A stretch of 64,000 bases of DNA, from IMG/VR virus record IMGVR_UViG_3300042261_002391, positions 24,469 through 88,468 of that record. One strand, written 5' to 3'. Made by a program: the position numbers and the translations under genes. Below the pieces are notes generated by a model. That model worked only from the letters and a program-made list of their open reading frames with translations, did not search any database and had not been told where the DNA came from. How positions within the stretch are numbered: the stretch's first letter is position 1; the number at the start of each line of letters is the position of its first letter. This document shows, piece after piece, positions 24,400 through 62,995 of the stretch. This stretch comes from a virus.

Positions 24400-24501
24400 T
24401 TTTTATTTTTGATTATAATTTATTGAACAATAATAATATTCCAAATTCCGATATGGAATATTTGCGATTCTCAAATCACGAATCTGGTTATAATCAAACT
24501 A

Positions 24502-25885: not shown

Positions 25886-25972
25886 AACTTTTAGAGTTTA
25901 ATTATAAATACTATTGAATTGCAAATGTAATGAATAATTTTTAATATACAAGCAATTTCAAATAAATTTTTG

Positions 25973-26046
25973 AGATTCTAGTGGGATTCGAACCCACGAT
26001 TTTCAAGTTTTAGAGACCTGTGCAATAACCACTCTGCCATAGAACC
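25973..26046 (-). tRNA. amber suppressor tRNA (CTA anticodon)
   Basis: GGTTCTA/TAGAATC acceptor, CAGGT-CTCTAAA-ACTTG anticodon arm, U73. Confidence 0.92.
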
Positions 26047-27019: not shown

Positions 27020-27037
27020 GTTGAGTAAATTTTTTTG

Positions 27038-27123
27038 TAGCGGATACAGGATTCGAACCTGTGACTCCTTTTGGGAGTTCTGGCTTATGAGACCAGCGAG
27101 ATAGTCCACTTCTCTAATCCACA
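27038..27123 (-). tRNA. tRNA-Met(CAT), initiator-like, with long variable arm
   Basis: 1:72 mismatch, loop CTCATAA, extra arm ACTCC-CAAAA-GGAGT. Confidence 0.85.
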
Positions 27124-28851: not shown

Positions 28852-28925
28852 TGCGGGTAAAGGGAGTCGAACCCTCTCTATTTCTGCTTGGCAAGCAGAT
28901 GCACCACCAACTATGCGTCACCCGC
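28852..28925 (-). tRNA. tRNA-Gly(GCC)
   Basis: Cloverleaf, loop TTGCCAA. Confidence 0.9.
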
Positions 28926-28957
28926 AAATTAGCAGGAATTACTTCCTGCAATTTTTT

Positions 28958-29158
28958 TTAAGGCATGAGCCTAAATGTTAGCTTATTTCTAAGTTTTGGA
29001 TTGCCAACCCAATACACATATTCTTCAGCTTTTTCATAAGCATAGAATTGGGAAATAGCTTTAACATAGAACGTTAGAACTTCACCACTCGTAAGCGTGA
29101 ATTCTACCAACCAATATTTCATTGGTTGTTTTTCGATAACCTTTTTTGAATTCTTCAT
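28958..29158 (-). CDS. hypothetical protein
   Basis: 66-aa ORF. Confidence 0.55.
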   Translation of the reverse strand: MKNSKKVIEKQPMKYWLVEFTLTSGEVLTFYVKAISQFYAYEKAEEYVYWVGNPKLRNKLTFRLMP

Positions 29159-29227
29159 TCTTGCAATTTATCAGATAATCTGATAAACTACGAACTGTTA
29201 ACTTTTCTCATACTCATTATTACATTG

Positions 29228-29303
29228 AACGTCTGGAGGGATTCGAACCCTCATGTATCCAATTACACTTCTCTACGTTCGTAGCGTAGCGTGATACAGA
29301 CGC
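29228..29303 (-). tRNA. tRNA-Arg(ACG) with rearranged D-arm
   Basis: Good acceptor, anticodon and T arms; D-loop-like AATTGGATA lies 3' of the anticodon arm. Confidence 0.8.
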
Positions 29304-29307
29304 ATGT

Positions 29308-29898
29308 TTATTTTTTTCTGTTTTCGTATTTTAAGTATCTTTCTTTTCTTGCAGAATTTTTATTTTTAGATGTAAATGTATCCAATTGACTATTACAATT
29401 AGAACAAACTAATCGTAAATTTTCTCGTTTATTATTTGAAGCATCACCGTTAATATGGTCTAGCACAAATACTAAAGGTTTCCCATTCCAAAAATTTTCA
29501 ATACCACAAATCGCACATTTATTATCTTGTTCTTTTAATACGTGTTTTTTTACAAACACAGGCATATAATCGGCTCTACAATATTTTTCGTTATTTTTTA
29601 AAAAATCTTCGTATTTTATTTTTGCCTTATATTCAAACTCACATGTTTTATTACAATATTTCCCACAATAATAATCACATTCTTTACCACAATTAAGACA
29701 ATAAACAATCTTTTTTTTACCCTTATTTGCTGGAACAAAATTAATTGGGAATTTAGCTCTCCTTGGTAATGAAATTCCTAAACTATTACATATTTTTTTT
29801 ATATATGTATCGGAAACATTATACATTTTACCGATTTCACGATATGTTTTTTTTTCAACAAAAATTAAATTTTCTAATTCTTCTTTAATGTATTTCAT
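29308..29898 (-). mobile_element. HNH homing endonuclease
   Basis: CAICG...LDHINGD...NLRLVCSNCN. Confidence 0.9.
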
Positions 29899-29981
29899 AA
29901 TATTTTTTTATATAAATACTATGAATATTAAAATCGAACTAAAAAATCAAAAATAAATTTTATTGTTATTGGTTCGATTAG

Positions 29982-30053
29982 TAGGGATTAGAGGATTCGA
30001 ACCTTTACAATTTTGTTAGGAACAAAATATGCTATCCATTACATCAAACCCCC
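29982..30053 (-). tRNA. tRNA-Arg(CCT)
   Basis: Loop TTCCTAA; paralogue of the TCT gene. Confidence 0.9.
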
Positions 30054-30181
30054 ATTTAATTTTCATCTGTTTTAATTGGTATATAAATAACCTCACCGCA
30101 ACATAAACCATAGTCACTTCCATTAATTGGAGCTACTGGTTGATTACATTTAGGACAATATGCCATATGTTTTAAATTTAG

Positions 30182-30253
30182 TAGGAATTAGAGGATTCGA
30201 ACCTCTACGATTTCGTTAGAAGCGAAATATGCTATCCATTACATCAAATCCCC
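30182..30253 (-). tRNA. tRNA-Arg(TCT)
   Basis: Loop CTTCTAA. Confidence 0.93.
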
Positions 30254-33017: not shown

Positions 33018-33089
33018 GCTCTCGTATTGGACTCGAACCAATCCCGCCCTGCTTCACGCAGAGTGTACCTTCCACTATACGAACGAAAT
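33018..33089 (-). pseudogene. degenerate tRNA (loop CGTGAAG)
   Basis: T and D arms present, weak acceptor, G33. Confidence 0.65.
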
Positions 33090-35697: not shown

Positions 35698-35707
35698 ATT
35701 ATTATCG

Positions 35708-35788
35708 TAGTGATGGTGGGATTCGAACCCACATTACCTTACGGTACACCTTATCAGGGTGCTGCCTTAACCAATCGACCACATCACT
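35708..35788 (-). tRNA. tRNA-Ile(GAT) with long variable arm
   Basis: Loop CTGATAA; extra arm ACC-GTAA-GGT. Confidence 0.88.
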
Positions 35789-36010: not shown

Positions 36011-36145
36011 TTACGAACCTATCGCATCCTCTACACCCGAATCAATTACAATATTTCTGCCTGTAATGTTAGAACAGAATATACCATTTCCATTGCGACT
36101 TGATGTCCCAAAATTTGAACTTGATATGGTTGTAAAAGTATTCAT
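36011..36145 (-). CDS. attenuator leader peptide of tRNA operon 1: MNTFTTISSSNFGTSSRNGNGIFCSNITGRNIVIDSGVEDAIGS
   Basis: Translated by hand; residues 2-32 use only N,T,F,I,S,G,R,C. Confidence 0.88.
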   Translation of the reverse strand: MNTFTTISSSNFGTSSRNGNGIFCSNITGRNIVIDSGVEDAIGS

Positions 36146-49038: not shown

Positions 49039-49130
49039 TGGAACATGTAGGATTCGAACCTACTTACTGCGACCAATACGACTATTTAGCGATGCAGGTT
49101 GGATTTACAGTCCAGTGCCGTTAATGTTCC
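49039..49130 (-). tRNA. tRNA-Tyr(GTA) with rearranged D-arm
   Basis: Perfect acceptor and T arms; only 8 nt between acceptor and anticodon stems; GTCGT-ATTGGT in the variable region. Confidence 0.8.
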
Positions 49131-50384: not shown

Positions 50385-51515
50385 TTATCCTACTTCATAA
50401 CCATCCTTAAACGGTTTTGAATATGTTGGTCTGATTTTCTTCCATATAATTTCATCATATGGTCTTTTATCAAACATTTTAAATAAGATGCTGCAATATT
50501 CAGTTTTAAGTGCTTCTGCTGCAAATTCTTTACGTGTTTTAATATCATTGATATGATAAATACGAATGAATTCTTTCAACGATAGTCTTTCAATTGAGTT
50601 ATATTCGTTTTCCAACGAAGCAACTGTTTTTTTCAACCAATCATAAAATTCGTCAGGTACTCGGTCAAGTAACGAATCAAAATCATAATTATTCATCAAA
50701 TGTTCCCATACCGTAATATTTGAAACATTCGTTAAAATACCATGTAATCTGATATATTCACTAAATTTTACTTTAACACGAAAACCGTCAGAAAACCTAA
50801 CAACAAAACCTTCACGATTTTCTTCTTCAAGTGCCTTCAAATCATTAAGATTCTTTATGTTTTTTAATTCATATTTCTTAACAACAGTAAAATACTTAGA
50901 ATACATCGCAATCAATTTATCGTATGGTAATTCTTCCCCGGTTGAAGTTATAATGTTACCTAGTAACACTAATTCCCTTCTATCACCATAATCGACAACA
51001 ATACGATTTTCTTTATATAAAATTTCGAACAAATATGTGCAATTACGATTCAATGCATCAAAAGTATTATTTTCAATCATTTTACGTGCTTCAATAACTT
51101 GCTCGGAAATAAATGAACCACGACTAGCAACAATCCATTGCATTATTTCTTCATAAAAGAAAACTATAATCAATGACCCATCCATTTTTTCAAAAATTTC
51201 AAATTCTTTAGACATATCAATTTCTGATGGGTCGTGTTCTTCAAAATTCTTGAATTTCATGAATGGTCTAGCAAGAATATTACCATTGCCATCAACAACC
51301 ATTCCACGACAAGATAATGTGTATACATCCCAAAATCTTTTAGATTGTACTTTAGGTGAATAATTCAAAATCCAAATATCATATTCTGGATGCTTATTGG
51401 CAACAATTAATCCATTGTCAATATATTCCCGCAATAATGCCCAATCAACTTCTTCCAACATTTCCATTCTATGTCCCCCTCTTTTTAGGATATGAGTATA
51501 ACTTGTTTCTTTCAA
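50385..51515 (-). CDS. T4 Rnl1-family RNA ligase
   Basis: EKMDGSL, SRGSF, FE, EGFVV, RVKVK (true start probably the internal MEMLEE). Confidence 0.9.
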   Translation of the reverse strand: MKETSYTHILKRGGHRMEMLEEVDWALLREYIDNGLIVANKHPEYDIWILNYSPKVQSKRFWDVYTLSCRGMVVDGNGNILARPFMKFKNFEEHDPSEIDMSKEFEIFEKMDGSLIIVFFYEEIMQWIVASRGSFISEQVIEARKMIENNTFDALNRNCTYLFEILYKENRIVVDYGDRRELVLLGNIITSTGEELPYDKLIAMYSKYFTVVKKYELKNIKNLNDLKALEEENREGFVVRFSDGFRVKVKFSEYIRLHGILTNVSNITVWEHLMNNYDFDSLLDRVPDEFYDWLKKTVASLENEYNSIERLSLKEFIRIYHINDIKTRKEFAAEALKTEYCSILFKMFDKRPYDEIIWKKIRPTYSKPFKDGYEVG

Positions 51516-59520: not shown

Positions 59521-59619
59521 ATTTTTGTATGAAAATTCCGTCAATAACTCTCATTTTCGACGTTAGTGTTGGTTATTTCCGACAAAACAATATCTTTTGT
59601 TGATAATAAGCAACATCAG

Positions 59620-59709
59620 TACAGCGTAGGGGATTCGAACCCCTGATACCTCTATTAGAAGTATATCAGATTGAAAGTCTGACAACATAAGCCACTCGTT
59701 CAACGCTGC
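59620..59709 (-). tRNA. tRNA-Glu(TTC) with long variable arm
   Basis: TCAGA-CTTTCAA-TCTGA; extra arm ATACTTCT-AAT-AGAGGTAT. Confidence 0.85.
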
Positions 59710-62857: not shown

Positions 62858-62912
62858 CGCTCTTTTTTCTTGCAAAGATAAATAATAATTTCAATCACAC
62901 AAGTATTTTTTG

Positions 62913-62995
62913 TAGTCCCCGCAGGATTCGAACCTGCAAACCCGTTAGAGTGTCGGCTTCAAAGACCGATGCATTAACCATTCTGCCAGAGGACT
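62913..62995 (-). tRNA. tRNA-Gln(TTG) with long variable arm
   Basis: TCGGT-CTTTGAA-GCCGA; extra arm ACTC-TAAC-GGGT. Confidence 0.83.

Follow-up and report, generated by a model that had tools for sequence, protein, structure and literature searches.

Can a transfer RNA (tRNA) whose D-arm lies beyond the anticodon arm, in place of the variable loop, still be a working tRNA? The question is raised by a gene of 76 bases with the anticodon ACG, which is encoded on the minus strand at 29228–29303 of a 64,000-nucleotide stretch of viral DNA (positions 24,469 to 88,468 of the IMG/VR record IMGVR_UViG_3300042261_002391). This whole stretch is called the window, and coordinates without a contig label refer to it. 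An earlier note on the window had interpreted the gene as a rewired tRNA-Arg(ACG). Our analysis supports this interpretation by a covarying helix, the base A20 and a fitting decoding niche: judged from comparative sequence analysis, the gene probably encodes a functional phage tRNA-Arg with a non-cloverleaf chain order.

Read from 29303 to 29228, the gene runs from the 5′ strand of the acceptor stem through TA, T, CAC, G, the anticodon arm, AGAA, GTG, T, AATTGGATA, CAT and the T-arm to the 3′ strand of the acceptor stem and a discriminator T. The acceptor stem, the anticodon arm and the T-arm are each intact, only 7 bases (TATCACG, bases 8–14) separate the acceptor stem from the anticodon stem, and an Arg-type D-loop, AATTGGATA, is placed between the anticodon arm and the T-arm. 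The 5′ strand of the acceptor stem (bases 1–7, 29297–29303) forms seven of seven pairs with 29229–29235, including G1-U72; the 3′ strand and the discriminator T (29228) together occupy 29228–29235, and CCA is not encoded. U8 and A9 (29295–29296) are followed by CAC, the D-stem strand that runs into the anticodon stem (bases 11–13, 29291–29293), and by the anticodon arm (29273–29289) with a stem of 5 base pairs, the 7-base loop CTACGAA and the anticodon at 29280–29282. The linker AGAA (29269–29272) leads from the anticodon stem to the returning D-stem strand GTG (bases 36–38, 29266–29268). A single T and the D-loop-like AATTGGATA, with the equivalents of A14, A15, G18, G19 and A20, follow at 29256–29265, and the connector CAT (29253–29255) joins them to the T-arm (29236–29252; 5-base-pair stem GAGGG/CCCTC, loop TTCGAAT). 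CAC would be the equivalent of canonical positions 23–25 and GTG that of positions 10–12, and the last T of the connector could serve as position 48.

The D hairpin of the cloverleaf is missing, as only 5 bases lead from A9 to the anticodon stem, while other cloverleaf features are present: an acceptor stem of 7 base pairs whose discriminator is unpaired, a 7-base anticodon loop that has U33 and, at position 37, a purine, and a loop of the T-psi-C type. The Rfam tRNA model (RF00005) matches exactly 29228–29303 with 35.3 bits, above its gathering threshold of 29 and third lowest among the 38 Rfam tRNA matches in the window. In its alignment the D-arm is deleted (15 model positions are reduced to 4 bases) and 17 bases are inserted in the variable region. 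Sequence and Rfam alignment therefore both bear out the anatomy given in the earlier note, namely a D-arm moved into the variable region, a 7-nucleotide gap, an Arg D-loop 3′ of the anticodon arm and otherwise intact stems.

The earlier note had also claimed that CAC pairs with GTG and thereby rebuilds a D-stem with altered connectivity, and had proposed a covariance model from homologues as a check. Covariation argues that this pairing across the anticodon arm is real. In an alignment of 64 homologues, which was fitted to our own covariance model and used for both the covariation score and RNAalifold, 95.8% of all cells are paired, and both partners vary in 19 of the 20 pairs. The score for covariation amounts to 0.957, compared with 0.234 in shuffles and at most 0.163 when the partners are slid by 1–3 columns. 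All seven pairs of the acceptor stem covary (98% of cells paired), as do five of five pairs in the anticodon stem and four of five in the T-stem. The three pairs of the rewired helix each vary in both strands, with 92% of cells paired and with CG, AU, GC and UA at every position. The first pair is CG in 49 members, AU in 9, GC in 4 and UA in 2; the second is GC in 26, CG in 18, AU in 12, UA in 7 and GU in 1; the third is CG in 22, GC in 17, AU in 7 and UA in 3, and is unpaired in 15. RNAalifold independently predicts the same four helices, but on the model-fitted alignment.

Because that alignment had been fitted to our model, we recounted the pairing without any alignment, setting bases 11–13 against the three bases just before the T-AAYTGG motif in 48 genes of 75–79 bases. 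In this count 138 of 144 cells are paired, compared with 66.7 ± 6.1 in shuffles, and none of 5,000 shuffles reaches 138; the paired strands comprise 19 different triplet combinations. In the closest relatives of the window gene (L023, L088, L144 and L148), nearly all differences from it are compensatory and lie in the acceptor stem, the anticodon stem or the rewired helix, for example an exchange of CAC/GTG for CGC/GCG.

Three other pairings were considered and rejected. A variable-arm hairpin GTGT/ACAT, which would make the molecule a D-armless tRNA resembling class II, cannot be formed by relatives such as those with GGTT...ACAT. The minimum free energy (MFE) fold of the single sequence pairs GUAUC with GAUAC in a shifted register that destroys the anticodon stem; this pairing is not conserved in the members of the TCT type, and slid registers lose the covariation. 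Lastly, an additional pair between base 10 and the base after GGAT shows no covariation in the class of 76–77 bases, although a 2-base-pair pairing of this kind does occur in a subtype of 80–82 bases.

The homologues were collected in several searches. A first motif scan of viral contigs, for a AATTGGAT loop within 5–9 bases of a T-arm, revealed this order of parts in about 28 contigs that are unrelated to one another, in every case with an Arg anticodon, and a looser scan of viral contigs gave many further candidates among the matches listed. From 21 of the motif-scan genes and the proposed structure we built a covariance model, R1, which identifies at least 64 genes in at least 55 IMG/VR contigs with 44–92 bits, whereas ordinary tRNAs in the same 1.5 Mb reach at most about 44 bits. 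The window gene, with 91.2 bits, scores second best of all members and is the only R1 member in its 88-kb record; the canonical tRNAs of the window score at most 29.5 bits. Its layout is, on this comparative evidence, not a product of chance. Together with L023, L052, L088, L144 and L148 it belongs to a 76-base class with the linker AGAA; linkers are 3–8 bases long across the family, and in the class of 76–77 bases they begin with A or T, continue with G and end with A.

Members are also present in cultured phages, which we searched by BLAST with two members and then by R1. Seven carry the rewired gene (64–80.5 bits), bringing the total to 71 with the IMG/VR members: Microbacterium phage Zooman, Salmonella phage SSBI34 (Vequintavirinae), Listeria phage LPML1, Agrobacterium phage Atu_ph04, Stenotrophomonas phage SOVA965, Streptomyces phage TunaTartare and Limnohabitans phage DC31. 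The hosts of the carrier phages are ordinary bacteria of at least three phyla. An exact 37-base search of viral contigs gave no match, and when the 3-kb neighbourhood was compared with GenBank phages by BLAST, the matches were confined to HNH genes and ordinary tRNAs. Among 185,579 cellular species genomes, scanned with a strict motif, there was a single match, on a 201-kb contig of a metagenome-assembled genome (MAG) that holds two family members in a tRNA array, and R1 found none in 150 other genomes sampled from the order of that MAG, a narrow search.

Across the family there is hardly any variation in U8, in the first A behind the helix (A14), in GG or in the T-loop, and this also applies to members found by the model only, whose loops vary elsewhere (TAACTGG, TAA-CGG). 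TA at positions 8 and 9 is present in 63 of the 64 alignment rows, excluding the 87-base L009 row, which is misaligned at its 5′ end, and TAATTGG is nearly invariant. AT stands right before the T-stem in 64 of 64 members, though both database scans demanded it. CCA follows the discriminator in 33 of 64 members, compared with about one expected by chance.

In bacteria, A20 is the main D-loop identity base for arginyl-tRNA synthetase (ArgRS), and C35 with G36 or U36 are the anticodon identity bases. An A follows GG in 59 of 59 members with Arg anticodons (TCT 27, ACG 18, TCG 8, CCT 5, GCG 1), about 35 of which came from searches that left this base free, and the window gene likewise combines this A with the anticodon ACG. 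By contrast, of the five members whose anticodon is of the Ile type (TAT or GAT; L079:8349–8424, L023:9034–9110, L110:7511–7591, L143:692–772 and L167:7359–7439), four have T after GG; the rewired design would therefore not be limited to arginine. The loop CTACGAA is identical in all 18 ACG members, and CUACGAA is the loop of the bacterial TadA substrate. Host TadA would presumably deaminate ACG to ICG, which would then read CGU, CGC and CGA; the corresponding CGT, CGC and CGA make up 184 of the 484 Arg codons in 41 long open reading frames (ORFs).

The earlier note had named the gene the only CGN reader of the window. ARAGORN and Rfam agree for the window, and ARAGORN predicts none in the remaining 24.6 kb of the 88-kb record, so that the statement extends to the whole record. 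The gene adjoins canonical genes for tRNA-Arg(TCT) (30181–30253, minus strand, 61.9 bits) and tRNA-Arg(CCT) (29981–30053, minus strand, 53.6 bits), both found by ARAGORN and Rfam and neither with an encoded CCA; AATTGGATA resembles the D-loop AATGGATA of these two tRNAs. An arginine identity of the window gene would fit A20 in the 59 Arg members, these neighbours and the position of sole CGN reader. Across the family, there are 27 cases in which a canonical Arg tRNA shares the locus; in 20 of these its anticodon is not that of the rewired gene. A contig with four rewired genes, of which three are Arg (TCT, ACG and CCT), has a canonical TCG beside them.

These data also bear on the suggestion that the family consists of conserved tRNA-like RNAs without a role in translation, which would act as a decoy or sponge for a host nuclease or for a defence sensor targeting tRNA-Arg, or as a regulator, and would have kept the tRNA hallmarks for recognition. 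Such a decoy would have no need for A20 in 59 of 59 members, for a CCA end in 33 of 64 or for a covarying 7-base-pair acceptor stem, the isoacceptor slot left empty by the canonical tRNAs of a phage is usually filled by the rewired gene, and five Arg anticodons are what is expected of a decoding set. We regard it as unlikely, although tRNA function has so far been derived from sequence, some phages including Zooman have a canonical tRNA of the same anticodon beside the rewired gene, and a T4 Rnl1-type RNA ligase encoded in the window shows that tRNAs are under pressure.

How might a functional tRNA-Arg be built from this chain? The D-stem of an ordinary tRNA is stacked upon the anticodon stem, and its D-loop extends to the T-loop. 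In the window gene the chain would pass from the 5′ acceptor strand, U8 and A9 to CAC, the anticodon arm, the linker, GTG, the D-loop AATTGGATA, a 3-base connector, the T-arm and the 3′ acceptor strand, and the 3-base-pair helix would close round the anticodon arm and extend it. Because CAC enters the anticodon stem like canonical 23–25, and GTG followed by T and the D-loop resembles 10–13 followed by 14–21, the canonical segment 10–21 appears to have been moved from before the anticodon arm to the variable-loop position after it. The new joins would be roughly 9 to 22, 44/45 to 10 and 21 to 46–48, each of which presumably links positions that are neighbours in the L-shape, to judge by the tRNA core contacts. 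The elbow partner bases U8, A14, G18, G19 and the T-loop are all present in the window gene; the relocated D-loop would still present G18 and G19 to the T-loop and A20 to ArgRS, and G14 and A32 could form the usual 26–44 purine pair. We further infer transcription, processing, arginylation, inosine formation, use by the ribosome and a preserved L-shape.

Several observations weigh against this reading. For the window gene the model fold has −19.5 kcal/mol compared with −25.0 kcal/mol for the MFE structure, so the 3-base-pair helix is not favoured thermodynamically, and the MFE structure includes it in only 5 of 64 members. The alignment behind the covariation score and the RNAalifold prediction was fitted to our own model, and since TTGG, ATG and the T-loop were required in both database scans, part of the invariance of these motifs is built in. 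The three-dimensional equivalence of the helix to a D-stem would follow from tRNA tertiary contacts. The U73 discriminator is unusual, as is G1-U72, yet the latter is common to the canonical Arg tRNAs of the phage. Seven loci, including that of Zooman, have a canonical Arg tRNA with the same anticodon nearby, and the rewired copy is therefore not always needed for coverage. Finally, the one metatranscriptome contig on the stretch covers 28989–29207, outside the gene; run X2 covers both gene ends, but among the pieces listed none bridges 29246–29275.

A more far-reaching view, which we consider doubtful, is that the family represents a second natural tRNA topology working on bacterial ribosomes and kept because it can do what the cloverleaf cannot. 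Rewired tRNAs might then be spared by nucleases for which the normal D-arm side of tRNA-Arg is the recognition site, be they enzymes of host defence, toxins or phage nucleases directed against host tRNAs. Charging by ArgRS and acceptance by EF-Tu and by the ribosome would nevertheless be retained. If this were true, the members with Ile anticodons and a Tyr-like gene in the window would point to a general solution adopted by several tRNA identities.

Compared with known systems, the proposed tRNA-Arg is closest in its parts to canonical class I tRNAs such as tRNA-Arg(ACG) and the phage's own Arg(TCT) and Arg(CCT), with which it shares the 7-base-pair acceptor stem, the 5-base-pair anticodon stem, the 5-base-pair T-stem with TTCGAAT, the loop CUACGAA, the equivalents of U8, A14, G18, G19 and A20 and a D-loop motif like AATGGATA of its neighbours. 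In class I tRNAs the D hairpin lies between positions 9 and 26, whereas in the rewired gene the D-strands flank the anticodon arm and the D-loop takes the place of the variable loop. Because of this displaced D-arm, RF00005 gives 35 bits for the rewired gene and 54–62 for its neighbours. Class II tRNAs (Leu, Ser and bacterial Tyr) likewise have extra bases between the anticodon arm and the T-arm (17 by Rfam alignment in the rewired gene), but keep a normal D-arm and fold the extra bases into a hairpin of their own, whereas those of the rewired gene would pair back across the anticodon arm. The circularly permuted tRNA genes of the red alga Cyanidioschyzon merolae encode the complete 3′ half ahead of the 5′ half, and a normal tRNA is regained by processing. 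The segment order of these genes is also non-cloverleaf, but what is displaced in the rewired gene is an internal segment, and its covarying helix agrees with the order as encoded.

Animal mitochondrial D-armless tRNAs, for example tRNA-Ser(AGY/UCU), resemble the rewired gene in having a short connector instead of a D hairpin, but in them the D-arm is gone together with its contacts at the elbow, and they depend on partner proteins that have adapted (PMC4013460, PMC7609411). Seen as a secondary structure, the rewired gene, too, amounts to an acceptor/T domain and a long anticodon hairpin with an internal loop, and since mitochondria do use D-armless tRNAs (PMC7609411, PMC4013460), it might be a working tRNA of that kind, with CAC/GTG as a mere extension of the anticodon arm, the D-loop-like stretch as a flexible connector and neither a canonical elbow nor an L-shape. 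A flexible connector, however, would not hold U8, A14, G18-G19 and TTCGAAT nearly invariant, and members found by the model only still keep them. In the rewired gene every D-arm element is retained but moved, including the GG motif of the D-loop and a covarying 3-base-pair D-stem, so that a loss of the D-arm is not seen. The mitochondrial cases moreover depend on co-evolved EF-Tu and synthetases (PMC4013460, PMC12221289), whereas the carrier phages infect ordinary bacteria, and we find this explanation quite improbable.

A non-canonical tRNA fold has been engineered in E. coli, where it was built in the laboratory and cells were evolved to use it (PMC11551756). The engineered tRNA also departs from the cloverleaf for use by bacterial ribosomes, whereas the rewired family is natural and widespread in phages. 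The same 2024 paper states that all known bacterial tRNAs are cloverleafs (PMC11551756). No description of the rewired layout was found in the full-text literature, a coverage that leaves out subscription journals, or in a 2020 review of non-canonical tRNAs (PMC7609411), and the family appears to be undescribed so far.

The genes are rarely detected or annotated. ARAGORN calls overlap 3 of the 71 members and do not include the window gene, and all seven GenBank records leave the rewired gene unannotated, even beside annotated tRNAs. That gene finders miss rewired genes is only partly true, as the window gene and several relatives (38.7–44.1 bits) reach the threshold of RF00005 at the bottom of the score range.

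The window gene lies in a long tRNA array. ARAGORN predicts 39 tRNA genes in the window, nearly all on the minus strand and with HNH endonuclease genes in between, one of which (29308–29898, minus strand; Pfam HNH_3, E-value 1e-5) ends 5 bases upstream of the rewired tRNA. In such an HNH-rich array a tRNA gene might have been scrambled by recombination or homing-endonuclease damage and be dead, as the skipping of the gene by gene finders and annotators and a few damaged-looking relatives (a degenerate acceptor stem in L056, a partial L054, an 11-base duplication in L009) could suggest. Yet 71 genes share the same order with compensatory changes in four helices, nearly all changes between the window gene and its four closest relatives are paired, and the encoded CCA and invariant core bases argue for selection. 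The members are not recent copies of one sequence, and a dead gene, already close to refuted, is very unlikely.

An assembly artefact had been a concern of the earlier note. A contig from a different study and habitat, a wastewater contig of about 96% identity that carries the gene region, spans 28919–29773 with the same order, and none of 28 listed differences falls inside the gene (6 more differences are unlisted); the seven finished phage genomes show the same order as well, and the gene is not an assembly artefact. That a precursor is cut and religated to cloverleaf order, a route for which the Rnl1-type ligase of the phage and the circular intermediates in the processing of the permuted tRNA genes of a red alga might be cited, is, like an artefact, barely credible, since three cuts and three joins within 76 bases would be needed, no conserved processing motifs were seen and the covarying helix is the one formed by the encoded order.

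The record itself is 88 kb long with a CheckV completeness of 27%, and its source is therefore probably a jumbo phage of about 300 kb. The G+C content of the window is about 30%, and most of the stretch is present in DNA runs from freshwater and lake-water metagenomes. The T4 Rnl1-type RNA ligase is encoded at 50385–51515 (minus strand; Pfam RNA_lig_T4_1, E-value 2.4e-19); in T4, the Rnl1 RNA ligase is part of tRNA repair. A tRNA with the anticodon CTA, an amber suppressor that ARAGORN labels Pyl, lies at 25972–26046 (minus strand, Rfam tRNA 59.3 bits). Four minus-strand tRNAs of 82–91 bases, Met(CAT) at 27037–27123, Ile(GAT) at 35707–35788, Glu(TTC) at 59619–59709 and Gln(TTG) at 62912–62995, are unusual for class I and owe their length to hairpin-forming long variable arms. 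A tRNA-Ser(tga) of 72 bases predicted by ARAGORN at 33018–33089 (minus strand) is without a long variable arm and has no Rfam match at threshold; it is a doubtful call or a degenerate gene. Upstream of the tRNA array, a 44-codon ORF (36011–36145, minus strand) contains CGC as codon 17 and AGA as codon 30, and the CGC codon that the earlier note had seen in an operon leader is thus present.

Within the family, further variants were observed. In Zooman (L171, OK040793.1) two unannotated rewired genes lie at 89187–89262 and 95033–95111; the first (ACG) sits between annotated canonical genes for tRNA-Arg(acg) and tRNA-Arg(ccg), with an RtcB-like RNA ligase gene close by. In the subtype of 80–82 bases (L062, L084, L102, L110:8929–9008, L122, L124, L129, L138, L143:1681–1760 and L149), TA is followed by a second base and the tail resembles TGAAAAT; its bases 10–11 covary with the two bases after AATTGGA (GT/AC, GC/GC, AC/GT, CA/TG); its D-loop would be a bulge in a helix of 4–5 base pairs. 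Six tRNAs of 88–89 bases with the anticodon TAT (L063, L068, L098, L100, L121 and L157) combine a normal D-arm with a TAATTGG motif in a 21-base variable region and may be intermediates or relatives of the rewired design. The 87-base member L009:2260–2346 has its 11-base duplication (CTTCGAAACTTTCGAA) in the anticodon loop and is probably damaged or carries a small insert.

The window also holds a 92-base tRNA-Tyr(GTA)-like gene (49039–49130, minus strand) that adjoins a normal tRNA-Tyr gene. Rfam assigns it 34.4 tRNA bits, and it has neither an ARAGORN call nor an R1 match. Its ACGGC, which follows TA, is able to pair with a GTCGT that stands behind the anticodon arm and precedes ATTGGT, and a CTGC/GCAG pseudoknot is possible; to judge by these pairings, the gene looks like the same rewiring in another identity.

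The cloverleaf order of segments has been treated as universal outside animal mitochondria. If the members of the rewired family work, the L-shape would be reachable by a different threading of the chain, and ArgRS, TadA, RNase P, EF-Tu and the ribosome would tolerate this threading. The tRNA complements of phages would then be under-counted, given that ARAGORN missed 68 of the 71 members and that the gene is absent from the annotation of all seven GenBank records. The question can already be tested, since the rewired gene is present in phages in culture, namely those of Salmonella, Agrobacterium, Microbacterium, Streptomyces and Stenotrophomonas, and the family would offer synthetic biology a natural non-cloverleaf scaffold.
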